A stretch of 64,000 nucleotides of DNA from Gammaproteobacteria bacterium (GTDB lineage Bacteria > Pseudomonadota > Gammaproteobacteria > UBA4575): the NCBI GenBank assembly GCA_965243395.1, contig CBDEUS010000002.1, forward strand, positions 160,001 to 224,000, read 5' to 3'. Below, in pieces: positions 1 to 59,484 of this stretch. Every line of letters starts with the position of its first letter. Within the stretch, counting starts at the first letter, position 1. Under the pieces are notes generated by a model. The model ran no database searches. It worked only from the letters and a program-made list of their open reading frames with translations, and was not told the DNA's origin. The translations under genes and the position numbers were made by a program.

Positions 1-35
1 TTGGCATAAAAAAGAGGTTTATTTGATATAATTAA

Positions 36-110
36 TGGAGGCCAGGGTCGGAGTTGAACCGACGTATTACACCTTGCTGGGGGTATGCATCACCACTCTG
101 CCACCTGGCC
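36..110 (-). tRNA. tRNA-Cys-like gene with atypical anticodon arm (possible pseudo-tRNA)
   Basis: Reverse complement GGCCAGG TG GCA GAGTGGTGA TGC A TACCC CCAGCAAG GTGTA ATAC GTCGG TTCAACT CCGAC CCTGGCC TCCA. Acceptor, D and T arms are intact, with U73 and CCA. The anticodon loop is 8 nt, contains GCA and lacks U33. Confidence 0.7.
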
Positions 111-713
111 TTTTAAGCTCACTCTTTGCAAATTTGCTAAAATCTTCATTGCTTCGATTAAGGAGCAATCGTAAATTCTCATAATTTTTTCTTTATCTCT
201 TTCGTCTCCAAGTAATCTTGAATCTAATAAAAACGCATCTCTAAATAAATCTGCTTGGCACTCGGAATCAGTATGTCTATCTACTGATTGAAATTCATCA
301 GTTAAGTTTAGGTACTTGGATTTGTGATTACAGAAATAATGTCCAAGTTCGTGTGTAATTACTTGGAGAGCATCAAAAGAATATGATTCAGCAGCTGCCC
401 AGATGCTTTCTCTAAACTGAAAAAAATTGGATGGATTATCTGTATTATCTTTAGGACAAAATCTAGCTGGCCCGAAGTCCAATAAATCATCCTCAAGCAA
501 TTCAAAGTATGGATAATTGTTATCTGGGCTATGCTTAATACTAAAATATGTAATTAATTTTGTTGGATCTGCAAGATTTTTATTATTATTTCTAACAAAT
601 CCATATTCCAAACAGTAGTCTATAGCCTGATGTGCGATAGAAACAATCTCATCATCTGATTTATACGGTACTTTGCAACCATAATTTCTTGTATCACGTA
701 GAGTACTCATCAA
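90..713 (-). CDS. ImmA/IrrE family metallopeptidase
   Basis: HELGH zinc motif and downstream E-x-QAD-x-F motif; overlaps the upstream XRE gene. Confidence 0.8.
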   Translation of the reverse strand: MMSTLRDTRNYGCKVPYKSDDEIVSIAHQAIDYCLEYGFVRNNNKNLADPTKLITYFSIKHSPDNNYPYFELLEDDLLDFGPARFCPKDNTDNPSNFFQFRESIWAAAESYSFDALQVITHELGHYFCNHKSKYLNLTDEFQSVDRHTDSECQADLFRDAFLLDSRLLGDERDKEKIMRIYDCSLIEAMKILANLQRVSLKGQVAEW

Positions 714-1053
714 GAATAGCCTTTATTCTTTTTTTGTCCTCAACAGAAAGTTTTTTAAATCTTTGATGAAATGAATGAGTTAAAGCCCTCTCATCCAAAC
801 TATAATCATCAAGGTTAAGTTTTAATTGATTAATTGATAATTCCGCCCACTCATTCCATTGTTTTTTTGTAATCCCAAGGTTTTTAAAGAATTTGTAAGT
901 CTTATTAATTATGTCTGTAGAAATTGGTTTCTTGCCATTCTCAACCGCTGATAAATAACTAAGTTTGATACCCAAATACTCAGCCATTTCTGTCATGGTT
1001 ACACCTTTATCTGTTCTGGCAATTCTGGCTTCTCTACCAAATTTTGTAATCAT
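694..1053 (-). CDS. XRE-family HTH transcriptional regulator
   Basis: TMTEMAEYLGIKLSYLSAVENGKK HTH motif. Confidence 0.85.
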   Translation of the reverse strand: MITKFGREARIARTDKGVTMTEMAEYLGIKLSYLSAVENGKKPISTDIINKTYKFFKNLGITKKQWNEWAELSINQLKLNLDDYSLDERALTHSFHQRFKKLSVEDKKRIKAILDEYST

Positions 1054-1070
1054 ATTAAAATCACTCCAAT

Positions 1071-1118
1071 ATAATCTATTCGGGTTAAAATATTAACCTA
1101 TATAGGTTAACTTTTCAA
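1071..1118 (-). promoter_or_regulatory. sigma70 promoter of XRE-ImmA with palindromic operator
   Basis: Minus strand TTGAAA(1118-1113)-17 bp-TAATAT(1095-1090). Perfect palindrome TTAACCTATATAGGTTAA at 1093-1110 and a degenerate copy at 1071-1088. Confidence 0.65.
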
Positions 1119-1165
1119 GACTAGGCAGAAGTAATTTAATGACCATGTAATTGCTTGTTTTTGAA

Positions 1166-1207
1166 GGTGGAACCGGTAGAACTCGAATCTACGGTCAAAG
1201 GATTGTG
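1166..1207 (-). pseudogene. tRNA 3'-half fragment (att-like scar)
   Basis: Reverse complement CACAA TCCTT TGACC GTAGA TTCGAGT TCTAC CGGTTCC ACC. Perfect T-arm and a 3' acceptor strand in tRNA register; the 5' half is absent. Confidence 0.6.
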
Positions 1208-1265
1208 TGGTTTCTTATTTTGTAAGAATTGAGGATATTTGAATCAAGTTGGATCCTGATGATCA

Positions 1266-1856
1266 TTAATCATTAAATCCGACTATAAATGAGATGCTAT
1301 ACATATCATTCCCTTCCGCATCGGTAATGATAGTGATGTTTTCTTGGGTAAGTATTTGATGCTCTTTTGGAATGTATTCTTGTTCAAGTACGGGACGCAC
1401 TAATTTTAACAAAGACCGAGGTGATAACGACTCAATATCAATTACTGAGAAAAATAAGGTAATGGCTGTCATCCCATCTTGCCACCATAATTCCAACCGG
1501 TAAGGTCTCTGGTTTTCTAACATACCGGATTTAGCACCAAGATCCCCTTCACGTAATTGAGAATCATTACAATATTGATTAGGTATAAATTTAGATCGAT
1601 TAGGTACTGGATACTTTGAAGTAGATTCAGAGTAACTACAATTATGTGCAAAAGATCTAGAACCAATTTTCATGCGCTCTTTTTGTTGATCTTCTTGCCA
1701 CCAAAAATATCCTATTATTCCACCCAGCATGAGGACAAGTGCGTTACCAGTGGTCAGTCCATGATCTAACACATAAACGGTTCCTAATATCAGAGCTGAA
1801 AGCCCGATAAGGTAAACGATCGTTTTGCCTGTATTTTTAATGGCCTTTAATTGCAT
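1266..1856 (-). CDS. Hypothetical protein with two N-terminal TM helices
   Basis: 196-aa ORF with two hydrophobic segments; no family recognised. Confidence 0.6.
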   Translation of the reverse strand: MQLKAIKNTGKTIVYLIGLSALILGTVYVLDHGLTTGNALVLMLGGIIGYFWWQEDQQKERMKIGSRSFAHNCSYSESTSKYPVPNRSKFIPNQYCNDSQLREGDLGAKSGMLENQRPYRLELWWQDGMTAITLFFSVIDIESLSPRSLLKLVRPVLEQEYIPKEHQILTQENITIITDAEGNDMYSISFIVGFND

Positions 1857-1889
1857 TCTTGTTTCATGAGTATATAGGTTTTACTTACT

Positions 1890-1917
1890 GTAGACTATAG
1901 TCCGTAGACTATATGTC
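1890..1917 (+). promoter_or_regulatory. C-box-like operator
   Basis: GTAGACTATAGTCCGTAGACTATATGTC: GACT-AT-AGTC followed by a second GACT repeat, directly upstream of a controller-like HTH gene. Confidence 0.65.
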
Positions 1918-2176
1918 ACATCTGGATAAGGTCTATCACATGATAGACCAACGGATTCTGCAAGATTGTTTTGGAGATGTGCTCCGAGAAGCTAGATTGC
2001 GTGCATCCTTATCACAAGAAGCCTTAGCGATGGAATGCGAGCTAGATCGTACTTTTATTTCAATGTTAGAGCGAGGTCAAAGACAGCCTTCACTCTCAAC
2101 AATTTTTGCTCTATCTGATGCCCTTGGTATTAGACCCTCTACTCTATTGAAAAAAGTAGAAACTGCAACTGAGTAG
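1913..2176 (+). CDS. XRE HTH protein, R-M controller (C-protein)-like; probable start 1940
   Basis: LSQEALA..LDRTFISMLERGQRQPSLSTIFALSDAL motif plus upstream C-box. Confidence 0.8.
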   Translation: MSHLDKVYHMIDQRILQDCFGDVLREARLRASLSQEALAMECELDRTFISMLERGQRQPSLSTIFALSDALGIRPSTLLKKVETATE

Positions 2177-2259
2177 AGGATATGTATACTGAATGTCGCT
2201 CTAAAAATTGGAGCAACTATCAAATAGTTAATTAATAGTTGATATATACATAATTGATT

Positions 2260-2276
2260 TCCACCTAATTTCCATC
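2260..2276. repeat. Paired TCCACC/TCCATC (11-bp period), putative integrase arm-type sites
   Basis: Same motif and spacing at 9494-9510, and inverted at 24221-24237. Confidence 0.45.
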
Positions 2277-2422
2277 AAATAAACTTCAATAATTCAGTTT
2301 ATTTTAAACCCTTCTTCAGTATGCTTTCAGCTAGTCTTCAGCACGAAAAACTAGTCAAAAACCTCCCCGCAGTAACCTATTTATTTAATATAGAAATGCG
2401 GACAATCAAACCTCAATGCTTC

Positions 2423-2452
2423 AATATCCGCTTTCAGCCAATAGCGGATAAA
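2423..2452 (-). repeat. 30-bp palindromic cassette-boundary site A
   Basis: AATATCCGCT TTCAGCCAAT AGCGGATAAA. Confidence 0.8.
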
Positions 2453-2470
2453 AATATAATTACCTGGCGA

Positions 2471-3145
2471 TTAATCCCAATTAACAAACTTTTTATGAGA
2501 AAAAAACAAAATATTAATAATCCAATACAAAATAACTATCAGTACCAACATTGTCGGAATACCAACAATGTAAAATACTTGCTCTATTGGCATTTCTTTA
2601 ACGTTAGAACCTTGCATTTTTATAATCTTATCCGTGAATGCTAATAGGGCCCAAATCAGAGAAAATCCGATTCGCCATACATGTCTAATTATGCGTTGAT
2701 TTCCTGATAAGCCTGATAGATATAAATTTCGGATATCTCCAATTGCACAAAGAAAGGCAAAGCCTGCCCAAAAAAGATAAACACTTGGAACATTTACATC
2801 ACGCCAACCAGCACTTACAAAAAGTGCAGCTATAGCAAAGATAACAATCCATGCTAGAGCCACATATTCCATGAAGCCAGTTTCATATTTTTTATGCTTC
2901 GCTGTTAGCCATGCAGTGAATACTGTATAGATCACAACAGCACTTAAAAACATGTCATCTGTGGATTCTTTTAAATGTGCGGCTACGAATCCTGAAACTA
3001 GCATGATGGTCATTGAAACAGTGAACCAATTACCAGCTTTCCGATGACTAATGCCTCCTTTGATTACGAACAAGGCAACAACAGCAGTAATGAGTCCAAT
3101 GGCTCCTGTAGGAGTATGAATCATCCAAACTACTATTTCTTTCAT
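2471..3145 (-). CDS. Multi-pass membrane protein (DUF2306-like)
   Basis: H...G..ALF..KGG..HRKAG N-terminal motif; about 7 TM segments. Confidence 0.7.
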   Translation of the reverse strand: MKEIVVWMIHTPTGAIGLITAVVALFVIKGGISHRKAGNWFTVSMTIMLVSGFVAAHLKESTDDMFLSAVVIYTVFTAWLTAKHKKYETGFMEYVALAWIVIFAIAALFVSAGWRDVNVPSVYLFWAGFAFLCAIGDIRNLYLSGLSGNQRIIRHVWRIGFSLIWALLAFTDKIIKMQGSNVKEMPIEQVFYIVGIPTMLVLIVILYWIINILFFSHKKFVNWD

Positions 3146-3183
3146 TTAATTATTCTCTATCTGTTGAACTATTAAATAAAATG

Positions 3184-3213
3184 AATGACCGCTTTGGCTC
3201 GTTAGCAGTCATT
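3184..3213 (+). repeat. 30-bp palindromic cassette-boundary site B
   Basis: AATGACCGCT TTGGCTCGTT AGCAGTCATT. Confidence 0.85.
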
Positions 3214-3266
3214 TTGAACGTTTGTTTTCAAGCTTCCAACCAAACTTCCCTTAAATTAATCTAAAT

Positions 3267-3296
3267 TATGTCCGCTTTCGGCCAATAGCGGACATT
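3267..3296 (-). repeat. 30-bp palindromic cassette-boundary site C
   Basis: TATGTCCGCT TTCGGCCAAT AGCGGACATT. Confidence 0.85.
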
Positions 3297-3302
3297 CATG
3301 AA

Positions 3303-3872
3303 CTAACCTTTTTCAAATAAATATTCATAGTTATTTCCATCATCTTCTGATTCATGGATTAGTTCCCAGCCTGCATTATTAGCTAGTTCATTATATGCAG
3401 CCGAACCTAGGGAATAATATTTAAAAGAAATACCATTCATCTCACCTATTGTTGTGTTTTTTTCCTTCGCAGACGTAAACAGAAATCGTCCACCACTAGC
3501 TACTGAATTAAAAACATTGTTTAGAACTTCTATCTGATCATCAGGATTGAGATGAAATAGTGCACCCCAACAAAGAACACCATCAATTGTAGTCTTAGGA
3601 AAAACATAATCTTGTAGACGTGAGTGGATTACAGCTGAGTTAGTAAAGTTTGATTTAAAAGATTCAACCATTAACCTTGAACTATCAACACCAAGTATAT
3701 TCATCCCCATCTGTTTTATTGTATTGGCAAGCGGTAATCCTGTACCGCAACCTAAATCAACAATAGTTGAACCTGGCTTTAAATTTTTGAATGCTAACTT
3801 AACAGAATCAACTCCCACGTCGTCATTCCTAGATTTAAGATACCAGTCAAATATTTGATCGTATTCTTTCAA
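3303..3872 (-). CDS. Class I SAM-dependent methyltransferase
   Basis: IVDLGCGTG motif I, GVDSS, ALFHL. Confidence 0.85.
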   Translation of the reverse strand: MKEYDQIFDWYLKSRNDDVGVDSVKLAFKNLKPGSTIVDLGCGTGLPLANTIKQMGMNILGVDSSRLMVESFKSNFTNSAVIHSRLQDYVFPKTTIDGVLCWGALFHLNPDDQIEVLNNVFNSVASGGRFLFTSAKEKNTTIGEMNGISFKYYSLGSAAYNELANNAGWELIHESEDDGNNYEYLFEKG

Positions 3873-3888
3873 GATTGTTAAATTGGTT

Positions 3889-3917
3889 TTTATCTGTTTT
3901 GGATCGTTTCAGTCTAA
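3889..3917 (+). repeat. Degenerate cassette-boundary site D
   Basis: TTTATCTGTT TTGGATCGTT TCAGTCTAA: core matches sites B/G, arms are decayed. Confidence 0.45.
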
Positions 3918-4360
3918 TTTATCTTGTATTCTTTTTCCCAGTTATCTAACTCAGCAAGTGTTAGTTCAATCATACGATCAGGGTTATTTCTCAGCAGCTT
4001 TAGTTTTTCTTTCGGTATATACACCAAATCATCTAAGTGCCTGCTAGACCATCGAACAAGATGAGTAAGGGTATGAACCAAGTCCTTACCGCTTTGAGTT
4101 AAATAATAAAGTTTACGGGTTCCATATTCAGGATGCGGTATCACATCAATCAACTCATACTCAAGCAATCGATCTAGTCGGTTGCTCAGAATATTAGTGG
4201 AAATACCTTCCTCAGCGTCAAGTAGCTCTTTGTACTCATGTCGATTGAAAAACAGTAGATCACGGATGATAAGAAGCGTCCATTTATCGCCAAGGACATC
4301 TAAGGCACACGCCACTGGACATTTCGTACGTTCACAGTGCAGTTGCTTAGGTGATGCCAT
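3914..4360 (-). CDS. HxlR-family winged-helix regulator
   Basis: CPVACALDVLGDKWTLLIIRDLL; ATG at 4360 preferred over TTG at 4375. Confidence 0.85.
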   Translation of the reverse strand: MASPKQLHCERTKCPVACALDVLGDKWTLLIIRDLLFFNRHEYKELLDAEEGISTNILSNRLDRLLEYELIDVIPHPEYGTRKLYYLTQSGKDLVHTLTHLVRWSSRHLDDLVYIPKEKLKLLRNNPDRMIELTLAELDNWEKEYKIN

Positions 4361-4367
4361 ATATATT

Positions 4368-4424
4368 ACTTGCAAAATAAAAGTGATGTGTCTATAGTTT
4401 CATATCCACTTCCATTTTGCAAGT
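4368..4424. promoter_or_regulatory. Two ACTT-N9-AAGT operators between divergent HxlR and DUF899 genes
   Basis: ACTTGCAAAATAAAAGT (4368-4384) and inverted copy ACTTCCATTTTGCAAGT (4408-4424). Confidence 0.55.
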
Positions 4425-4446
4425 GGTATTTACTGAGGACATTATT

Positions 4447-5139
4447 ATGCCAACACATAACGTCGTGACACATAGAGAATGGGTAGCCGCTCGCAAACAA
4501 CTGCTCGTAGAAGAAAAAGAATTTACTCGTCTTCGAGACCAGCTAAGCCAAAAACGTCGAGATTTACCTTGGGTAAAACTTGAAAAAGAATATGTATTTG
4601 ATGGACCCAGTGGTCAGCATACTCTTTCAGATTTATTTGAGGGACAAAGCCAGTTAATAGTGTATCACTTCATGTTAGGGCCTGATTGGGATGAAGGTTG
4701 TAAGAGCTGTTCGTTTTGGGCAGACAATTTTGAAGGTACAGATATTCATCTAAAGCATCGTGATATTACCTTTCTTGCCATATCAAGAGCTGAAATTGAA
4801 AAAATTGAAGCTTATAAAAAACGTATGGGCTGGACCTTTAAATGGTTTTCTTCATTCAATACAGATTTCAATTATGACTTCCAAGCCTCGTTTACTTCGG
4901 ATCAGAAAGAAAAGAATGAAGTGATCTATAACTACATTAAACAACCCTATTTTATAGATGAGATGGCAGGGGTAAGTGTATTTATCAAAGATGAGAATAA
5001 TAACATCTTTCACACCTACTCTACTTATGCTCGTGGTTTGGATATTTTAAATGGTGCCTACAACTATATTGATTTAACACCTATGGGACGTAATGAGGAA
5101 GACGGCATGTCATGGCTACGGCATCATGATCAATATTAG
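4447..5139 (+). CDS. DUF899 thioredoxin-like protein
   Basis: EKEFTRLRD..RRDLPW, GCKSCSFWAD and WLRHHD motifs; start after RBS gagga. Confidence 0.85.
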   Translation: MPTHNVVTHREWVAARKQLLVEEKEFTRLRDQLSQKRRDLPWVKLEKEYVFDGPSGQHTLSDLFEGQSQLIVYHFMLGPDWDEGCKSCSFWADNFEGTDIHLKHRDITFLAISRAEIEKIEAYKKRMGWTFKWFSSFNTDFNYDFQASFTSDQKEKNEVIYNYIKQPYFIDEMAGVSVFIKDENNNIFHTYSTYARGLDILNGAYNYIDLTPMGRNEEDGMSWLRHHDQY

Positions 5140-5166
5140 TTTCAAATATAAATCTATCAATACCAT

Positions 5167-5562
5167 ATGAAAGCTTTAACTAGTGGCAGGTGCATGTGCG
5201 GTGCAATACGTTATGAATTTAACGACAAACCTTTATATTCACTCATCTGCCAATGTACACAGTGTCAAAAAATTACTGGCGCTGGTAATGCGCCTTCCAT
5301 AGCAATTGCAAATGAAACATTCAAGCTTGAAGGAAAACTAAGTTATTTTAAACAGTTAGCAGAAGATGGAAATACGGTCAGCAATGGGTTTTGTTCAAAA
5401 TGTGGAAATCCCATTCTCAAAACAACCACCGCATTTCAAGACCGAGTTTACCTGCATGTAGGTAGTTTAGATGATCCAGGAAAGTTTGAACCAGAATTCG
5501 TTGTATTTAGTAGAAGTGGGTATTCATGGGACACCGTTGATCCTAAATTAAAGCGGCTCTAA
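5167..5562 (+). CDS. GFA/CENP-V family Zn protein
   Basis: GRCMCG, CQCTQCQ, FCSKCG. Confidence 0.85.
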   Translation: MKALTSGRCMCGAIRYEFNDKPLYSLICQCTQCQKITGAGNAPSIAIANETFKLEGKLSYFKQLAEDGNTVSNGFCSKCGNPILKTTTAFQDRVYLHVGSLDDPGKFEPEFVVFSRSGYSWDTVDPKLKRL

Positions 5563-5604
5563 TTAAAGCTAATTAATCTTAATCAATAGAAGAAAAGAAT
5601 TACC

Positions 5605-6015
5605 ATGAAAAAATTTATTCTCGCTACACTTTCATTTTTCATTTTAACTATGCCCTGGGCATATTCGTGGCATGTGATTTGGTTTCATGAGCTTTATGGA
5701 CAACTAGGAGCATTTACGCGCACATCGCCCATTATGCCTCTTGGTATTGCGGCGGTATTAATACAAGGTGCTGTTATATCTTATCTCTATCCATTTTATT
5801 ACCGAGGTGGGCATCCAATATTTCAAGGAATTAAGTTCAGCTTAATTATCGGTTTAATGGTGTATACAGTGATGGGTTTTGCTAATGCTGCAAAGCTTGC
5901 GATTGAGCCTATTTCAACCTACTTGGCGTACCATACAATTTTTCAGCTCATTCAGTTCGTTGTTACCGGTGCAGCACTAGGATTAATTTATGGTAGAACA
6001 CTGAACTCAGCATAA
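5605..6015 (+). CDS. 4-TM membrane protein
   Basis: Hydrophobic 136-aa ORF in an operon with DUF899 and GFA. Confidence 0.65.
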   Translation: MKKFILATLSFFILTMPWAYSWHVIWFHELYGQLGAFTRTSPIMPLGIAAVLIQGAVISYLYPFYYRGGHPIFQGIKFSLIIGLMVYTVMGFANAAKLAIEPISTYLAYHTIFQLIQFVVTGAALGLIYGRTLNSA

Positions 6016-6021
6016 ATAATT

Positions 6022-6051
6022 TATGTCAGATTTCGACCATTAGCGGTCATT
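6022..6051 (-). repeat. 30-bp palindromic cassette-boundary site E
   Basis: TATGTCAGAT TTCGACCATT AGCGGTCATT. Confidence 0.75.
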
Positions 6052-6055
6052 CCTT

Positions 6056-6418
6056 TTACAAATCAACCAAGACATTAAACCCACCCATAATCATTCTATT
6101 GATTTCAAATGGCATATTATTTTCATCACAGCTTTCTTTCATGCGTGGATCTTGAAATACCTTTTGATTGACTTCATCACGATGTTCTCTTGATTTATAT
6201 ACGACAAATGCAAATATTACGGTCTCACCATCGGATGAATTGGCCGCTTTGCGGAATGCGCCATTAGACATTTCTGAATCAATATCATCAGCGATGCATT
6301 CTTTATAAGCTAAAGCACCATGCTCCATCCAGACTGCACCCATTTTCTTTGCCAAATCTTTATATGCATCAATATTAGATTCAGGTAGTGGGATTACATA
6401 ACCATCGACATAACTCAT
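6056..6418 (-). CDS. DUF1428 (YbaA-like) protein
   Basis: MSYVDGYV, EHGALAYKEC, SREHRDEVN, MPF...RMIMGGF. Confidence 0.85.
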   Translation of the reverse strand: MSYVDGYVIPLPESNIDAYKDLAKKMGAVWMEHGALAYKECIADDIDSEMSNGAFRKAANSSDGETVIFAFVVYKSREHRDEVNQKVFQDPRMKESCDENNMPFEINRMIMGGFNVLVDL

Positions 6419-6454
6419 TTTTTAATTCCTAATATAATTACTTTTATAAGACTA

Positions 6455-6484
6455 AATGTCCGCTTTGGGCCGTAAGTAGTCATC
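6455..6484 (+). repeat. 30-bp palindromic cassette-boundary site F (plus 28-bp extension shared with site G)
   Basis: AATGTCCGCT TTGGGCCGTA AGTAGTCATC, followed by TTAAACCATGACCTGGTGAGATGTATTC. Confidence 0.8.
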
Positions 6485-6620
6485 TTAAACCATGACCTGG
6501 TGAGATGTATTCCTTGTTTCAGATACTTGAAAGGCGATATGCGGACCACCAATCCCCTGTTCTTAATAAGTATAGCTAATTTTTATAATCACTTTTGTAG
6601 CAAAGGAAGAAAATAATATG

Positions 6621-7025
6621 TTAATCATGTTTGGGTAAGTCGTCTACAATATCAATTATGCGCCTACCATAGAAAAAATGACTATCAGAATGTAATTCTT
6701 CAGGTAGTTCATTGTTATTACATTTTCTGATTAAAAGCTGAGAGAAAACACGCCAGTCCATCGCATTTGTGTTGAAAAGTGTTTCGCCACAACTCGAACA
6801 AAATACTCGTTTCATCTCTAAGGTTGGATGTTGATGACTTGATAATTTCTCCTCTCCCTGCACGATATTAACTTGATCTTTATTCCAAGCAGTTACGGAG
6901 TGAAAAGGAATGCATAGTAAGTCACGACAATCCTCACAATGGCAAAACCCTTTTACTCTTGGCTTACCAGATAGGGATATTTTAACTTCACCACATTCAC
7001 ATTTTATTTGATATTGTTTATCCAT
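6621..7025 (-). CDS. GFA/CENP-V family Zn protein
   Basis: CECG, CHCEDCR, FCSSCG. Confidence 0.85.
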   Translation of the reverse strand: MDKQYQIKCECGEVKISLSGKPRVKGFCHCEDCRDLLCIPFHSVTAWNKDQVNIVQGEEKLSSHQHPTLEMKRVFCSSCGETLFNTNAMDWRVFSQLLIRKCNNNELPEELHSDSHFFYGRRIIDIVDDLPKHD

Positions 7026-7054
7026 TATTAAAATCTCAATTACTTTATACTGTA

Positions 7055-7639
7055 TTAAAATATTTTATTTAGATGTCCTGAAAATCGTTTAAGGTCGCTA
7101 TCAATCTGCGGGTTTTTCATTACATCGAAACATGCAAATGTTTCTAGCGCTGTCATGCCAAAAAAACGAAAGTTCATGTGCATCGGGAAAAACAAATCAT
7201 CTACTTTTTTTCCTTGAAATAGATATTCACTCTGATTTTCAAATGATTCTTCAGGTGCATTGAAAGTTAATGAAAGCATATACTTAGTATTAGTTAGTGT
7301 GCCACCTCCCCCATAGTTTAATTTTGGGTTCTCGGTTGTTCTGCCATCTCCATTGCATAAGTCACCACCCATACCGGCTGAATATACTTCATCCATATAC
7401 TTCTTAAAACTCCATGGTACTCCCATCCAATTAACGGGACTTTGCAAAATGATGTAGTTCGCCCATTTATGTTTTTCTAATTCATCCTTTACATCATATT
7501 CCTCTGCACTAACCGTCCTTTGTACTTGGTAACCTTTTTCTTTTAAATAAGAGATAGCGCTATCCGTTAACGTTTGATTAAGTTTGCCTTCTGAAAATGG
7601 ATATGGCTGATGCGCTTTAATATGTAGAATATTTTTCAT
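7055..7639 (-). CDS. mdaB: NAD(P)H-quinone oxidoreductase, MdaB/flavodoxin-2 family
   Basis: [38 protein letters not shown]. Confidence 0.75.
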
Positions 7640-7671
7640 ATAAGCTAGTCTCTAATAATTTTACGGTTAAC

Positions 7672-7708
7672 TGCGAGTTGAAACATTCATTTGATATTCC
7701 AACTCGCA
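7672..7708. other. Intercistronic stem-loop
   Basis: TGCGAGTTG...CAACTCGCA inverted repeat between SDR and mdaB. Confidence 0.5.
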
Positions 7709-7724
7709 TCTGGATTAAATGCCA

Positions 7725-8558
7725 TTACGCTACTTTTGCTTTATTTAAGTCTGGCCCAACTTGTAGATCCCAAAGACTGTCTTGGTACTTTTTACAATCT
7801 TCAATAAAACGCTCAGGATAAACATTGCGAAAGTTATGATTGTCCTTTGGTATAACATCAACCATAAACTCAATCATACTTTGTGGATCAAGTTGTAACT
7901 CATCACCAGAAAACAAACCTTGAATTTCACGAATGGGTGCTTCGGCACTAAAATTATTGCTAGGCTCATACCACTGATCTAAGGTGTCATACATACGATC
8001 ATTAAACCCTGTACGGAAAGGCCCTGGGTTAATCGTTGCGATAGTGACGCCTGTATCTTGCATTTCTTCACGCATCAATTGAACAATTGCTTCAAGTGCA
8101 TGTTTTGAAGCAACATAAGGCGCAAGATATGGAAAGGTTGAAAATCCGACGATAGAAGAAGTAAATATAATTTTGCCTTTCCCTTTTTCAACAAAAGCTT
8201 TTGCAAATGCTTGAGCTAATTCAAGTGTATTAAATACATTGACTTCAAAAACTTGTCGAATCCGATCTACAGGGATTTCTGCCACAGGTCCTGTTTGTCC
8301 AGTCGCTGCATTTGGTACAAATATATCTACTTTATCTGAATATTTTCGGATAATGGTTTCATGGTCATCCTTGTTTAAGTAATCTAACTTAGTCACTTCT
8401 AACTCAACACCCTCTGTATTAGCTGCTTCCATTAATGCCGAAACCTGTGGCCAATTTTCACAAGTGGCAATTACATTGTGACCATTTTTCGCAAGCCCAA
8501 TTGCCGTACCTTTACCAAGTCCTGAGCCTGCACCTGTAATTAAAATTGTTTTACTCAT
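7725..8558 (-). CDS. Short-chain dehydrogenase/reductase
   Basis: TGAGSGLG and YVASK motifs. Confidence 0.9.
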   Translation of the reverse strand: MSKTILITGAGSGLGKGTAIGLAKNGHNVIATCENWPQVSALMEAANTEGVELEVTKLDYLNKDDHETIIRKYSDKVDIFVPNAATGQTGPVAEIPVDRIRQVFEVNVFNTLELAQAFAKAFVEKGKGKIIFTSSIVGFSTFPYLAPYVASKHALEAIVQLMREEMQDTGVTIATINPGPFRTGFNDRMYDTLDQWYEPSNNFSAEAPIREIQGLFSGDELQLDPQSMIEFMVDVIPKDNHNFRNVYPERFIEDCKKYQDSLWDLQVGPDLNKAKVA

Positions 8559-8587
8559 TTTTCATACCTCATATATTAAAATGTGAA

Positions 8588-8884
8588 TTAAATGATTTGA
8601 TGTCCTTTATGAATGACTGGATTTCTCTCCAGTACATTAGTTAATTTCTCAATGGCTGAATTCAGATGAGGTGTTTCCCAATGAGCACTCTCATCATCTA
8701 CAGTCCTCCATTTTTCATACGATAAAATAGTGTTAGCTTTCTCTTTATCGTGGATAAAGAAATATTCGATTGCCCCAGCTTCCTTTCGAGTATTTGTTGC
8801 TAGGTCATTTAGAATCGCTTTCAACTCATCATATTTGCCATCTTTGGCAGTGAGTTCTGCAATGGTGTACATGTATTCACTCAT
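8588..8884 (-). CDS. ABM-family (quinol monooxygenase-like) protein
   Basis: TRKEAGAIEY...YEKW...HWETPH. Confidence 0.8.
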   Translation of the reverse strand: MSEYMYTIAELTAKDGKYDELKAILNDLATNTRKEAGAIEYFFIHDKEKANTILSYEKWRTVDDESAHWETPHLNSAIEKLTNVLERNPVIHKGHQII

Positions 8885-8940
8885 AGTATTTTCTCCTTTC
8901 AATCTCATGAATTTTTCAATGTTGAAAAATATATCGATTC

Positions 8941-8977
8941 AGGTTACTATAATCAACCAGTATACTTTTAGTAACCT
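8941..8977. promoter_or_regulatory. Inverted-repeat operator between divergent ABM operon and HxlR
   Basis: AGGTTACTA...TAGTAACCT. Confidence 0.5.
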
Positions 8978-8988
8978 AATAAGTTTTC

Positions 8989-9345
8989 ATGGAAAGTAGA
9001 GTAAAAACAGATAGTAAAGGCCGTAAAAGTGTCATTGAGCCATGTTTAGAACCATGTCCAATTGAACGTGGTATGCGAATACTTGGAGGCAAATGGAAAG
9101 GATCTATTTTGTGGCATTTGAAAGATGAGCCAGTTCGATTTAATGACCTAACACGAATGTTGGGTGGTGCTAGTAAGAAGATGGTTGATCAGCGGTTGAA
9201 AGAAATGGAAAAGGAAGGATTAATTGTTCGTAAAGTTCTAAGTGAACGCCCGATTGCTGTTACCTACCAAGCGACAGAATTTGGCAAAAGTGCTTTAAGC
9301 ATTCTTGATGGCTTAAAAACTTGGACTGAAGCAAATAATCTCTAA
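8989..9345 (+). CDS. HxlR-family regulator (Cys-containing, probably redox/quinone sensing)
   Basis: CLEPCPIERGMRILGGKWKGSILWHL. Confidence 0.85.
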   Translation: MESRVKTDSKGRKSVIEPCLEPCPIERGMRILGGKWKGSILWHLKDEPVRFNDLTRMLGGASKKMVDQRLKEMEKEGLIVRKVLSERPIAVTYQATEFGKSALSILDGLKTWTEANNL

Positions 9346-9365
9346 AAGACCAAACTTTTCTAGTA

Positions 9366-9395
9366 AATGTCCGCTTTAGATCGTTAGCGGTCAAT
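9366..9395 (+). repeat. 30-bp palindromic cassette-boundary site G
   Basis: AATGTCCGCT TTAGATCGTT AGCGGTCAAT, followed by TTAAACTATGCTCTGCAGAGATGTATTC. Confidence 0.85.
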
Positions 9396-9493
9396 TTAAA
9401 CTATGCTCTGCAGAGATGTATTCATCCAATCAGCTAAATTTAATTAAAGTAAAACAGTGTATTACGCACTGCATGACACCGAATAGACTTCTA

Positions 9494-9510
9494 TCCACCA
9501 TACTTCCACC
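9494..9510. repeat. Paired TCCACC (11-bp period), putative arm-type sites
   Basis: TCCACCATACTTCCACC. Confidence 0.45.
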
Positions 9511-9596
9511 AACTCTCAGCTTTTTTAGCATCAATAATTCTCTTATCTATGAGCTCATGATGCCTAAAACCTGTCATTTCCTGTATTTTAGTCTTT

Positions 9597-10052
9597 ATGA
9601 AAATCTGTTCCAAAAACTTAAAACGAGATCTGTTTGTCCGTCATTATCTAAACCATCTCAACATTAATGAGGCATATAAACGAGCGGGGTTTTCGCCAGA
9701 TGATGCCAATGCAAATCGATATTTCCATCGCAAAGATGTCCAATTAGCATTGGAAGCACATGCTGCTAAGACATTACAGAAACTTGATATCAGTATTGAC
9801 AAAACGATCAAGCATCTTGCTGCTATAGCTTATGGAAACGCTCTAGACGTAATGGAATATGAGACTGGGAAATGGAAGTTTAAAGAACTTCATGAACTCC
9901 CGCCTTGGGTCGCAGTATCGTTAAGAAAGTTTGATAAACAAGATAATAGAATATCTTATTCTTTTGAACCAAAAATTCCAGCTCTTAAACTTTTACTTAA
10001 GTACCTTGAACTAAGAAAATTACTAAACAGACAGTCACAAGTCGGAAATTGA
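9597..10052 (+). CDS. Phage terminase small subunit-like protein
   Basis: FVRHYL..LNINEAYKRAGFS resembles the TerS N-A-xx-A-x-RAGYS HTH; C-terminal KIPALKLL resembles the TerS K..ALELL. Confidence 0.6.
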   Translation: MKICSKNLKRDLFVRHYLNHLNINEAYKRAGFSPDDANANRYFHRKDVQLALEAHAAKTLQKLDISIDKTIKHLAAIAYGNALDVMEYETGKWKFKELHELPPWVAVSLRKFDKQDNRISYSFEPKIPALKLLLKYLELRKLLNRQSQVGN

Positions 10053-10088
10053 AATTTAGCTATGTTCTTATTAAACAACCAAATCTTT

Positions 10089-10706
10089 CTAGTTTGAAAT
10101 TTCATTTATCGCATCTGCAATTTCTTGACTTAACTCTGCAAGGGCTTCACTTTCAGCAACAACTATTGCGTCATAATTATCCGCAGCTGGTATTTTTGAA
10201 ATCTTTGACCTCTTTCTCATTATTTCCTTTCTTCCACGATCAGTTAATAGTGACCAACGAGCCTCAATTGTTGCCTCTTCACCAATTACGCTATCAAATC
10301 TGGTGACATCAATTGCGACTTGATAATCAATAGGTACAAATCGATTCCATGGGTATGTATTTATTTTTTCTGTACCTAGTAAAGTTGCGAAATTGTCGCT
10401 AAGCACTCTAGATACATTGTTATTCAATGACTCTGCCCAACGATGGAACTCATCAATGACGAGTTCATTCCCACCGTTTTTTGTGACAATCTGGGGTCGA
10501 TTAACATAGTCAGGTAATTTAATTGGACCGATACCAATCGAAAGTGTATCCCCGCTAAGACTATTTGGAATGTTATCAACCTCTGCAAGTGAAGTAAGTA
10601 CATAAAATTTTGTTGGCTTACTTGAGCATCCACTAACACTTAACGCAATTAAAGTTAGTGTGACACATGCAATCTTTGTTAATTTAAAAATATTTTTAGT
10701 ATTCAC
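10089..10706 (-). CDS. pqiC: PqiC-like lipoprotein (ABC transport auxiliary)
   Basis: Lipobox VSGC, LPDYVNRPQIV, HRWAESL. Confidence 0.85.
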   Translation of the reverse strand: MNTKNIFKLTKIACVTLTLIALSVSGCSSKPTKFYVLTSLAEVDNIPNSLSGDTLSIGIGPIKLPDYVNRPQIVTKNGGNELVIDEFHRWAESLNNNVSRVLSDNFATLLGTEKINTYPWNRFVPIDYQVAIDVTRFDSVIGEEATIEARWSLLTDRGRKEIMRKRSKISKIPAADNYDAIVVAESEALAELSQEIADAINEISN

Positions 10707-10717
10707 ATTGTCCTCTC

Positions 10718-12313
10718 TTATTTTTTACCAGCTATAAGTGCTTCTGGATGTCGTTCTAAATAGTTTGTTAATACACGGATTGACTGAGCCATCTCTTTAA
10801 ATTCAACCATCATGTTGGCTAAGTCATATTGAAGAGCTGAATCAGGTGCGACTATTCCATCTACCGATTCAAGTGTTTGTGTAGCTTGCACTAATGTTTC
10901 GTTGGTAGAGTGAATAATATTTTTCATATCCGGGTCATTAATCAAATGATTCATGCCTTGGGTTGTTTCAAGTAAATTTTGCCCAATTTCATCAAGTGGT
11001 AGATTTTGGAAGTTTCTAGCCACTTTCGTAATCATTTCTTCAATTTCTGCTATTGTAGTTGGTATTGTTGGTAACTCTGGATGGGCATGTTCGATTCTTG
11101 CCAGCTTCATCTCTGCATTTGGGTGAAACTCCAAATCAACAAACAATTGACCTGTTAGCATACTGCCTGTTTGCAATTGTGCCTTCAGACCGCGCTCAAC
11201 AAGAGCACCAATAACATCTTCATCACTTCTTTCTACAAGTTGTTTGCCGTTGATGTATGGGATTCGCTCTGGTTCTAACTCTACTGTTACAGGAATGTAT
11301 ATTTCTAGTGATTCCGGATCCTCCATGATATGAATATCTGTTACCTCACCTAACTTAATACCACGAAATTCAACTGGAGCACCAACACTCAAACCACGAA
11401 CTGAGCCACTAAAAAACATTACATAAGGAATTTTTTCATCGTATTGGATTTCATTTGTTTCTCCATAACGGTCATACAATCTAAATGTTGAATTTGCTTC
11501 TGCTAGCTTTACTTGTTGAGTTGTACCGCTGAGCGTATCAAACGCAATTCCCCCAGCTAGGATGGATTGCAATGAACCTGTTTTCACGTCAATGCCATTG
11601 GCATCCACTTGCATTTCAAAACCACTGACATTCCAAAATCTTGAGTTTGTTCTTACTAAATTATGAAATGGAGCTTCAATAAAAGCATGCAGCTTTATTT
11701 GTTCTGTATCAGGCAAAAAGTCGTAACCAAGAATTTCTCCAGCATGTATCCCTCGATAATAAATTGGTGCACCTGGATGAAGTGAACCAAGCTCATCAGC
11801 TATGACGATAAATTCTCGACCATCAACATCGGCTTTTACAATGGGTGGTTCTTTTAGACCAACAAAATTTTCGACTGCTGCACCATCACCAGGCTCAACC
11901 TCGATATAAGCTCCCGAGAATAATGTACCTAAACCAGATACTCCTGAGGCACCCACTCTTGGGCGCACTACCCAAAATCGTGTATTTTCATTTAAATGTT
12001 GTTTGGCCTCTTTGCGAAATTTTGCAGTGATTAAAACTTTACTTAAATCGTTATCGAGAACCACATCACTGACAAGTCCAACTTCGACATCTTTATATTT
12101 AATTTTGGTTTTCCCAGCTTCAATACCTGTTGCCTCTTTGAAACTTATCGTTACTGTAGGGCCTTTTTCAGAATAAGCCTTGTAGCCTAGCCATCCAGCA
12201 ATTAGTACTGCAACAATTGGTAACATCCAAACTAATGAAACACCTTTACGTTCTTTCATTTCAACTTCATCAATATCAGAAATTGATTGATCAATTTTAT
12301 TTTTAGATTCCAT
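10718..12313 (-). CDS. pqiB: PqiB MCE-domain intermembrane transport protein
   Basis: Three MCE repeats (TKIKYKDVEVG, APIYYRGIHAG, APVEFRGIKLG); YLERHPEAL C-terminus. Confidence 0.9.
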   Translation of the reverse strand: MESKNKIDQSISDIDEVEMKERKGVSLVWMLPIVAVLIAGWLGYKAYSEKGPTVTISFKEATGIEAGKTKIKYKDVEVGLVSDVVLDNDLSKVLITAKFRKEAKQHLNENTRFWVVRPRVGASGVSGLGTLFSGAYIEVEPGDGAAVENFVGLKEPPIVKADVDGREFIVIADELGSLHPGAPIYYRGIHAGEILGYDFLPDTEQIKLHAFIEAPFHNLVRTNSRFWNVSGFEMQVDANGIDVKTGSLQSILAGGIAFDTLSGTTQQVKLAEANSTFRLYDRYGETNEIQYDEKIPYVMFFSGSVRGLSVGAPVEFRGIKLGEVTDIHIMEDPESLEIYIPVTVELEPERIPYINGKQLVERSDEDVIGALVERGLKAQLQTGSMLTGQLFVDLEFHPNAEMKLARIEHAHPELPTIPTTIAEIEEMITKVARNFQNLPLDEIGQNLLETTQGMNHLINDPDMKNIIHSTNETLVQATQTLESVDGIVAPDSALQYDLANMMVEFKEMAQSIRVLTNYLERHPEALIAGKK

Positions 12314-59290: not shown

Positions 59291-59484
59291 TCTATTTCTC
59301 CTGTTAAATGTATATATAGGACCAAATGATGCGAGGTCAGTTGGTCTTTTCTGAATGTTCGCTATGTATCGATAGCAGACATTTTTAAGATTTGATTTGA
59401 ATAACCCAACATATTTATTATTTTAGTTTACCTATCCTTATTCTGATACAACATCCATGTTGTTACTCTTTTTCGTGAATCCAT

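Follow-up and report, generated by a model that had tools for sequence, protein, structure and literature searches.

The window analysed here is a stretch of 64,000 nucleotides from a gammaproteobacterium of the UBA4575 lineage (positions 160,001 to 224,000 of contig CBDEUS010000002.1, in the following G000:C2:160001-224000). The source genome, G000, has a length of 2.58 Mb and a GC content of 38%, consists of two contigs (C1 and C2) and is 100% complete. Between positions 2423 and 9395 the window harbors a row of small genes and operons bounded by copies of a short palindromic site, named A to G, which comes in two variants, a and b, distinguished by their central loop. The unit formed by such sites and the open reading frame (ORF) between them is referred to as a cassette. 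The features are listed below, with scores in bits taken from a position weight matrix (PWM) that was trained on the sites of G000 itself.

2423..2452, minus strand: site A, b-type, loop TTCAGCCAAT as read on the plus strand; downstream boundary of the membrane-protein cassette; 35.5 bits
2471..3145, minus strand: cassette gene of 224 aa without Pfam family, labelled a membrane protein in the first-pass annotation of the stretch
3184..3213, plus strand: site B, a-type with loop TTGGCTCGTT, bounding the membrane-protein cassette upstream; 44.9 bits
3214..3266, minus strand: spacer of the B/C doublet, 53 bp; on the gene strand a sigma-70-like TTGGAA-N17-CAAAAT reading into site B
3267..3296, minus strand: site C, b-type, bounding the methyltransferase cassette downstream; 53.0 bits
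3303..3872, minus strand: cassette gene of 189 aa for a methyltransferase dependent on S-adenosylmethionine (Pfam Methyltransf_25, E 2.6e-14)
3889..3918, plus strand: site D, decayed a-type, upstream of the methyltransferase gene; loop TTGGATCGTT matching at 9 of 10 positions by eye, arms eroded; below 12 bits
3914..6015, both strands: multi-gene interval D-E with, by Pfam, HxlR (3914-4375, minus), DUF899 (4417-5139, plus), GFA (5167-5562, plus) and an ORF of 136 aa without family (5605-6015, plus)
6022..6051, minus strand: site E, b-type, outer arm decayed; bounds the DUF1428 cassette downstream and lines up with the b sites flanking its copies in the congeners G012 and G002; 36.2 bits
6056..6418, minus strand: DUF1428 cassette gene of 120 aa (Pfam, E 2e-35)
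6455..6484, plus strand: site F, inner half a-type, outer loop half b-like (TTGGG|CCGTA); upstream boundary of the DUF1428 cassette; 41.4 bits
6621..9345, both strands: multi-gene interval F-G with, by Pfam, GFA (6621-7025, minus), flavodoxin-like (7055-7639, minus), SDR (7725-8558, minus), ABM (8588-8908, minus) and HxlR (8989-9345, plus)
9366..9395, plus strand: site G, a-type variant, loop TTAGATCGTT, closing the array; 42.5 bits
59354..59383, plus strand: solitary site outside the array, loop ATGTATCGAT, two mismatches; 31.9 bits

A scan of the window for the pattern AATGTCCGCT-N10-AGCGGACATT with up to three mismatches yielded four matches (3184, 3267, 9366 and 59354) compared with none in 100 shuffles. 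The PWM was applied with cut-offs of at least 12, 20 or 25 bits for different counts; genome-wide it detected around 120 sites at 12 bits or more and 97 at 20 bits or more, and the shuffled genome gave none at the lowest cut-off. The palindromes A, B, C, E, F and G reported by the first-pass annotation are thus real, and D is degenerate as it had been described. The half-sites proposed near 2392 and 6535 could not be told from chance, sharing only an arm-like word of 7 to 9 nt (GCGGACA occurs 85 times genome-wide versus about 64 expected) with flanks that have no other copy. The solitary site at 59354 had been overlooked, as had the fact that the motif fills 11 further clusters of the genome.

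The a and b sites are variants of one palindrome of 28 to 30 bp, (AAT)GTCCGCT-N10-AGCGGAC(ATT), whose central 10 bp split into two loop classes, TTGGGTCGTT in a and ATTGGCCGAA in b. The alternation of core orientation that had been read from this array is real and is better described in terms of these two classes. A few loops are hybrids, namely TTGGG|CCGAA at C1:282335, TTGGG|CCGTA at site F and ATTGG|TCGTT at C1:28673. In G000, the gene-proximal arms (AGCGGACATT in a, AATGACCGCT in b) are better conserved than the outer arms.

To assess covariation between the arms, 145 different sites were compared, drawn from five genomes or more. Paired positions amounted to 80.1% versus 79.9% after shuffling, a value reached by 206 of 500 shuffles, and every other measure of covariation was likewise within the shuffle range. 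The pair 5-26 may serve as an example, with T-A in 77 sites, no pairing in 61 and a compensated pair in 4. Site E folds weakly (-5.5 kcal/mol) and site F forms no stable hairpin (-2.1 kcal/mol, z 0.07); the whole B/C doublet folds into one long hairpin (-31.9 kcal/mol, z -3.3). Since the arms do not covary and E and F do not fold stably, the palindrome looks like two independently conserved half-sites read as duplex DNA, which fits a dimeric protein, rather than like a hairpin kept by selection. This reading of the sequences argues against a function similar to attC sites, to repetitive extragenic palindromic (REP) elements or to terminators. No known RNA family was found on the sites either: Rfam matches at gathering score in the window were limited to two tRNAs, and the six weak matches (E <= 10) between 2300 and 9600 all belonged to eukaryotic models of small nucleolar RNAs or microRNAs. 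The weakest of them, ceN54 at 6453-6490 (E 3.5; 18.3 bits, with a gathering score of 60), lies across site F and was taken as chance.

Across G000, the cassette is a compact unit in the order a site, ribosome-binding site, ORF and b site, with one ORF or sometimes a small operon. Orientation follows a simple rule. Among sites of at least 25 bits, the conserved-arm side of an a site faces the 5' end of an ORF in 34 of 40 cases (3' end in 2, no ORF in 4), and that of a b site faces the 3' end in 41 of 47 (5' end in 3, none in 3). Mostly, the distance from the stop codon to the beginning of the b site is -5 to +29 nt, and 0-48 nt separate the end of the a site from the start codon. The enclosure of single genes within tens of base pairs, first noticed in this window, is as described, and the claim that operons are not interrupted also agrees with the PWM scan, by which no site of 12 bits or more lies within intervals D-E and F-G. 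In 9 of 41 cassettes the stop codon of the ORF is a TGA inside the b site (AATGACC..). This internal stop may explain the preference of the b inner arm for A at position 5, where a has T.

Tandem cassettes are joined in the order b-spacer-a, with site starts 73 or 83 bp apart and a spacer of 43 or 53 bp in the genus. The spacer carries a conserved motif of its own, ..TTGATTCCAACC.., which on the gene strand corresponds to TTGGAA-N16-19-YAAAAT abutting the a site. This arrangement was found next to 15 of 40 a sites, at none of 47 b sites and at 63 of 2000 random places, and a scan with a generic promoter consensus was not above chance. By its sequence, the element may act as a promoter of the cassette gene. 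In three cases (C1:28673, C2:247854 and C2:999515) a second repeat of about 60 bp, ..GCATCATCC.TGATGG...CATATTCGC...CCCTGCGCTTAC.., adjoins the a site on the side beyond a.

The first-pass annotation had named scatter over the genome, as known for REP elements or terminator hairpins, as a pattern that would speak against its reading. The sites are clustered instead: for 90 of the 97 sites of at least 20 bits, the next site is no more than 5 kb away (at random placement, mean 31 and maximum 49 in 1000 trials), and 93 fall into 12 clusters covering 4.7% of the genome. In a 3.9-kb array, no terminator-like site was detected versus 1.8 expected, and direct repeats indicative of target-site duplication were absent around 14 cassettes. 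The cargo consists largely of proteins of unassigned function, as 15 of 20 proteins from single-ORF cassettes have no Pfam family and the other five belong to DUF4124, DUF6627, DUF4919, SnoaL-like and polyketide cyclase/SRPBCC families. Larger cassette proteins include Usp, a cyclase, an FAD monooxygenase and a two-component pair, with no nucleases.

Comparison with 14 congeneric species by BLASTN (window positions 1-12000) revealed no synteny. Single cassettes were found at other places with borders at the sites, in line with the earlier proposal of an exchangeable array: the membrane-protein cassette (query 2423-3179) matched two places in G011 at 86% and 85% with borders at sites A and B, and the DUF1428 cassette (query 6023-6473) matched G012, again bordered by sites. 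The DUF1428 cassette occupies different loci in four genomes, the copies in G012, G002 and G014 being 73%, 70% and 89% identical to that of G000. Cassettes of the window thus recur at other loci, with exceptions at the sites of G011, G002 and G014 that are taken up below. The gene for the 224-aa protein is also 69% identical to a paralogue at C1:898987, the methyltransferase cassette has partial DNA matches of about 72% in G007, and the B/C doublet is present in dozens of copies in every congener at 75-90% identity.

The most direct view on variable content comes from an orthologous hotspot, the gap between two conserved genes beside xerD. It is empty in G001, G022 and G019, where it measures 7-16 bp, and filled in G000 (6 kb), G011 (three cassettes) and G002 (at least five cassettes) with differing contents, so that a fixed gene order among relatives is not kept. 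In G014 it contains 1.7 kb of small ORFs and no sites. The array of G002 at this hotspot holds a DUF1428 cassette and, between two b sites, an HxlR/flavodoxin-like pair, both of which are located in the window in G000. The a-ORF-b order of G011 is the same as in G000, and the homology of its membrane-protein copies stops right at site B. Apparent joints in the contigs of one sequencing run (3298 to 6454 and others) have sides of 21-35 nt that are repeat copies elsewhere, and they are evidence neither for nor against rearrangement. Three further runs labelled with the same species shared 0.00 of the sequence words, which does not prove absence.

The pattern occurs in all 14 congeners with 1-201 matches each, and with 31-201 in all but G014, which has one. 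It is further present in several genera of the family with up to 183 matches and is absent or single in six small-genome relatives. An exact 20-mer from the a-type site matched more than 118 stretches in a species-genome collection, and the matches listed include metagenome-assembled genomes (MAGs) of Woeseiaceae and Thiotrichales as well as Alphaproteobacteria, Sphingomonas, Brevundimonas, Massilia, Lysobacter, Pseudomonas and Nitrospina. These loci range from 40 to 69% GC and keep the core GTCCGCT..TGG..AGCGGAC; isolates with the site core in Alpha-, Beta- and Gammaproteobacteria have 55-69% GC. Whole-genome counts of sites and of the control were 102 and 0 in an alphaproteobacterial MAG, 20 and 2 in Sphingomonas, 19 and 5 in Massilia, 13 and 2 in Lysobacter, and 0 and 5 in Pseudomonas guariconensis. 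The alphaproteobacterial MAG has arrays in a-ORF-b order with 15-bp spacers; spacers in other taxa are 5-15 bp long and doublets measure 65-113 bp across taxa. Of 401 genomes sampled evenly across the phylum, 151 had at least one match, most of them 1-5, and 11 besides G000 had at least five. The element is therefore widespread at low copy number and blooms in few lineages. A contig of P. guariconensis has four degenerate sites (b, a, a reversed, b reversed) within about 140 bp at 925-1062 with no ORF between, which may be an empty or collapsed array.

The sites are not linked to phages, as 12 stretches of viral contigs carried one match each, and plasmids gave 13 weak matches and no array. 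Single sites with the loop variant ATGTCCGCTTTGTGCCA(A/G)TAGCGGACAT lie on NZ_CP069974, an IncF plasmid of E. coli, at about 110 bp upstream of relB, and on NZ_CP050011, a Citrobacter plasmid, at about 20 bp after vapC. The b loop of the alphaproteobacterial MAG is similar to this variant.

Overall, the feature is unusually well defined, and the cassette interpretation of the first-pass annotation holds for the most part. We give roughly even weight to the reading that G000 has about 12 arrays, this region among them, of a type of gene cassette not described before, similar to integrons and pdif modules. In anatomy it comes nearest to integron cassettes and in logic to pdif modules, yet it fails the defining tests of both, as well as those of REP doublets forming hairpins (REPINs) with their associated tyrosine transposases (RAYTs) and of miniature inverted-repeat transposable elements (MITEs). 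With integrons the arrays share compact, mostly promoter-less single-ORF cassettes of unassigned function between imperfect-dyad repeats of about 60-110 bp, such as the Vibrio cholerae repeats (VCRs), ORF stops that abut or fall within the repeat, and contents that vary between relatives. The b-spacer-a doublet between co-oriented ORFs resembles a VCR-type repeat, yet single cassettes and array ends have separate a and b sites. In contrast to integrons, there is no integron integrase, the repeat is conserved in sequence and not in structure, and it combines two 30-mers, each a palindrome in itself, which are also found alone at the ends of cassettes and arrays. Furthermore, around 12 arrays are present per genome instead of one platform, and Alphaproteobacteria are among the hosts.

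The modules at pdif sites, which occur on Acinetobacter plasmids and depend on XerC/XerD, are similar in their 28-bp arm-spacer-arm sites of alternating orientation, in modules lying between inverted sites, in the better conservation of one arm, and in the lack of a recombinase encoded alongside. [quoted passage not shown] The site differs, however, from the dif of its host: a canonical dif lies at C1:959290-959317 of G000 (ACTTCGCATAA-TATATA-TTATGTTAAAT), located by means of what we take to be the XerD-arm motif, which agrees with the earlier statement that the sites do not match XerC/XerD boxes. Other differences are that both arms have the same sequence, which implies a homodimer and not XerC plus XerD; that each cassette has its own two sites and a spacer to its neighbour instead of one shared site; that the arrays are chromosomal and occur in several classes; and that XerC and XerD are present in G014 though its sites have decayed. 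The arrays are set apart from MITEs and mobile insertion cassettes by the missing target-site duplications and by the fact that no cognate transposase was found, and from intrinsic terminators by the 3.9-kb array and the folding of E and F described above.

In the proposed mechanism, a sequence-specific protein would act on duplex DNA as a dimer, each arm serving as one half-site, and the geometry would be that of a recombinase core site, 11-6-11. Because their centres differ, a would recombine with a and b with b, and two crossovers could swap cassettes between arrays or with incoming DNA while the orientation of the gene is kept. Such a swap would resemble recombinase-mediated cassette exchange and what has been proposed for pdif modules, and hybrid loops would be rare a-by-b events. 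From these hybrid loops and the homology breakpoints we infer that recombination takes place at the 6-bp core; exchange at the sites and a protein dedicated to it are postulated. A man-made counterpart is known in engineered cassette exchange with heterospecific lox or FRT sites, in which two site variants that differ in the spacer flank a cassette, each pairs with its like, and exchange proceeds without excision and with orientation kept. The natural cassettes, too, lie between two variants of one arm-spacer-arm site; the engineered systems, however, have a known recombinase, whereas exchange here is proposed from the pattern of sites.

A number of results weigh against this reading. No cassette movement was seen in the available sequencing, which consists of assembled contigs, and homologous recombination between doublets of 103-113 bp could move cassettes without a site-specific enzyme. 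Some loci do not follow the scheme: the empty hotspot is devoid of any site at which a cassette could integrate, both copies of the membrane-protein gene in G011 lack an a site and one has its b site reversed, the b loop of the G002 DUF1428 copy is reversed, and in Sphingomonas two flanking loops share the same half. The simple picture is further disturbed by G014, in which the DUF1428 gene (around 3760-4330 of G014:C7:88000-96000) is 89% identical to that of G000 and both flanking sites have decayed to below 3 bits. The search for the serving enzyme adds to this list. G000 encodes five tyrosine recombinases, namely XerD, XerC and three phage-type integrases, and no integron integrase (IntI), the best TIGR02249 scores being 131.5 bits for XerD and 134.9 bits for XerC versus a cut-off of 265. 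Three congeners (G004, G007 and G009) have only two tyrosine recombinases and yet 31-58 sites. Profiles of Y1_Tnp, Resolvase (serine recombinases), IS110, Transposase_31 (Rpn), rve, TnpB and DDE_Tnp_1 had no match in G000, and multicopy genes similar to those of insertion sequences were not found in this genome. Recurrent neighbours were missing as well, both among ORFs of at least 200 aa around 118 loci from many taxa and among ORFs of at least 220 aa or at least 60 aa beside the arrays of G000, G011, G019, G045, G002 and G012. It is because no movement was seen, no protein was found and recombination between doublets could suffice that our confidence in the cassette reading stops halfway.

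Over the whole, 100%-complete genome, a recombinase serving the sites was thus not detected among the families tested, contrary to the expectation of the first-pass annotation that one would be encoded outside the window. The option of an HUH transposase that it had also offered finds no backing, with no Y1 match in G000 and Y1 transposases that do not track the sites among 41 relatives. G000 appears to be free of insertion sequences altogether, since no family of proteins of at least 120 aa has more than three members at 60% identity or more, and those families tested were metabolic.

Individual candidates were rejected for different reasons. The three phage-type integrases, all within 20 kb of arrays, were not found at E <= 1e-20 in G001, G003 and G011 despite 59-143 sites in these genomes. 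XerC and XerD are unlikely to serve the sites, given the canonical dif and the presence of both genes in site-poor G014. RAYT (Y1_Tnp, PF01797) is absent from G000, occurs in one of the 14 congeners and is missing from the site-rich G002, G003, G005, G011, G019 and G038. A NusG paralogue as an ops-like reader drops out, as G000 has one NusG only. The decay of sites in G014 with the gene kept looks like the natural loss of whatever maintains the sites.

A different explanation, unlikely in our view although it deserves attention, is that the sites are intergenic elements maintained by the host in the manner of REP elements or bacterial interspersed mosaic elements (BIMEs), for example sites of chromosomal proteins, insulators or mRNA-end elements, which pile up in accessory islands; cassette turnover would then be due to island dynamics together with homologous recombination between the repeats. 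Like REPINs and BIMEs, the doublets are pairs of inverted palindromes of about 30 bp with an overall length of about 70-110 bp, are intergenic, number tens to hundreds per genome (30-200 copies here) and can fold as one hairpin, a layout typical of BIMEs and REPINs. As a unit with starts 73 or 83 bp apart, they recur genus-wide in dozens of copies at 75-90% identity. The lack of transposase or recombinase matches among the families tested fits as well, and so does G014, in which the enclosed gene was kept while the sites decayed, similar to the decay of REPINs that follows the loss of their maintaining factor. This explanation meets difficulties, however, in the distribution of RAYT, which is missing from G000 and from six site-rich genomes and present in one of 14 congeners, and in the lack of co-variation with Y1. 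The sites are confined to clusters on 4.7% of the genome instead of being dispersed, follow a strict gene polarity with two variants, and show neither compensatory changes in the stem nor any intrinsic-terminator-like site in the array. Their core sequence is the same across classes and GC contents, and we know of no REP family for which this holds.

A regulatory role seems improbable to us, though it would account for part of the data. Here, the sites would be operators of a regulon at which a dimeric regulator, bound at a over the transcription start and at b as a roadblock at the gene end, silences or insulates acquired cassettes, and they would travel because they give controlled expression. 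Conservation of both arms without covariation is as expected for a protein-binding site on duplex DNA. The promoter-like element TTGGAA-N16-19-YAAAAT with its excess at a sites (15 of 40, compared with none of 47 at b and 63 of 2000 at random) overlaps the outer arm with its -10 part, which places the predicted transcription start inside a, and the a sites lie 0-48 nt before start codons. No candidate regulator emerged, however, whether as a NusG paralogue or as a protein common to the arrays across genomes; the spacers of 5-15 bp in other taxa are too short for a promoter, and the generic promoter scan was not above chance. The half-sites are 19 bp apart from centre to centre, which is unusual for regulators, and the homology breakpoints at the sites, the hybrid loops and the second variant at the 3' end are left unexplained.

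It is very improbable that the arrays are integrase-less clusters of divergent attC sites (CALINs), in which the doublet would be the attC and an IntI, supplied in trans or lost in the meantime, would read it in folded single-stranded form. Pointing that way are the doublets (65-113 bp by taxon, between co-oriented compact ORFs, folding into one imperfect bulged hairpin), the integron-like cargo and an IntI above cut-off in one site-bearing genome, Lysobacter. An IntI above cut-off is missing, however, from G000 and from four of five other site-bearing genomes, half doublets are found at the ends of arrays and on single cassettes (a alone upstream, b alone downstream), and many hosts are Alphaproteobacteria, from which integrons are reported absent. 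Moreover, attC sites conserve structure while their sequence varies and carry the triplets AAC (R'') and GTT (R') at their two ends, whereas here the sequence is conserved, pairing is not selected, and AAC/GTT are confined to the a loop, where they stand at the wrong end whichever way the site is read; the dissimilarity to attC asserted at the outset therefore stands.

Returning to the cassette reading, one may go a step further and, tentatively and with well under even confidence, regard the arrays as a third natural cassette system in addition to integrons and Xer/dif modules, one that would extend over at least three classes of Pseudomonadota. In this extended form, the exchange of cassettes among many chromosomal arrays would be the work of an unlinked protein encoded in single copy, from a family so far not counted among the recombinases, and the loss of this protein, as possibly in G014, would lead to the decay of the sites. 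Searches of the literature with site strings of 15-16 nt returned no paper, and shorter strings occurred together, among the matches listed and judged by title, only in unrelated primer or short hairpin RNA papers; most subscription journals and supplements were outside this search, so that a prior description is possible. Word searches on such cassettes brought up nothing relevant among the matches listed, and the paper 'Pelagibacter, resolved' proved to be unrelated.

Only two natural systems for storing and shuffling single-gene cassettes are well known, integrons and pdif modules, and both were first met as unexplained repeats around genes. The site sequence described here is kept from a gammaproteobacterium with 38% GC to a Sphingomonas with 69% GC. 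If a protein reads the sites, it would be an unrecognised recombinase or regulator handling tens to hundreds of accessory genes per genome, and if the exchange proposed above takes place, the design with two site variants would be a natural tool, ready for use in cassette exchange. If there is no such protein, the conservation of a 28-bp sequence across classes without selection on pairing is itself unexplained. In either case, the site provides a simple marker for stores of accessory genes in uncultured Proteobacteria.

Some minor observations concern the ends and the surroundings of the array. The flanks of sites F and G and of the proposed half-sites belong to no repeat family in G000 apart from 31 bp at the flank of G that are repeated at C2:525994. 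The loop of site G recurs at the end of the array at C1:232-236 kb. The setting is that of an island, with a tRNA at the start of the window (39-110) and a phage-type integrase of 431 aa located 4 kb upstream (C2:155029-156321). Two Cro/C1-type helix-turn-helix genes (694-1053 and 1913-2176) precede the array, and a remnant of a small terminase (9597-10052) directly follows site G. Relatives of the GFA-to-HxlR operon (window 6874-9349) are found in metagenome contigs from mat, algal and biofilm samples at 85-95% identity, and the similarity ends at 9337-9349, just before site G.

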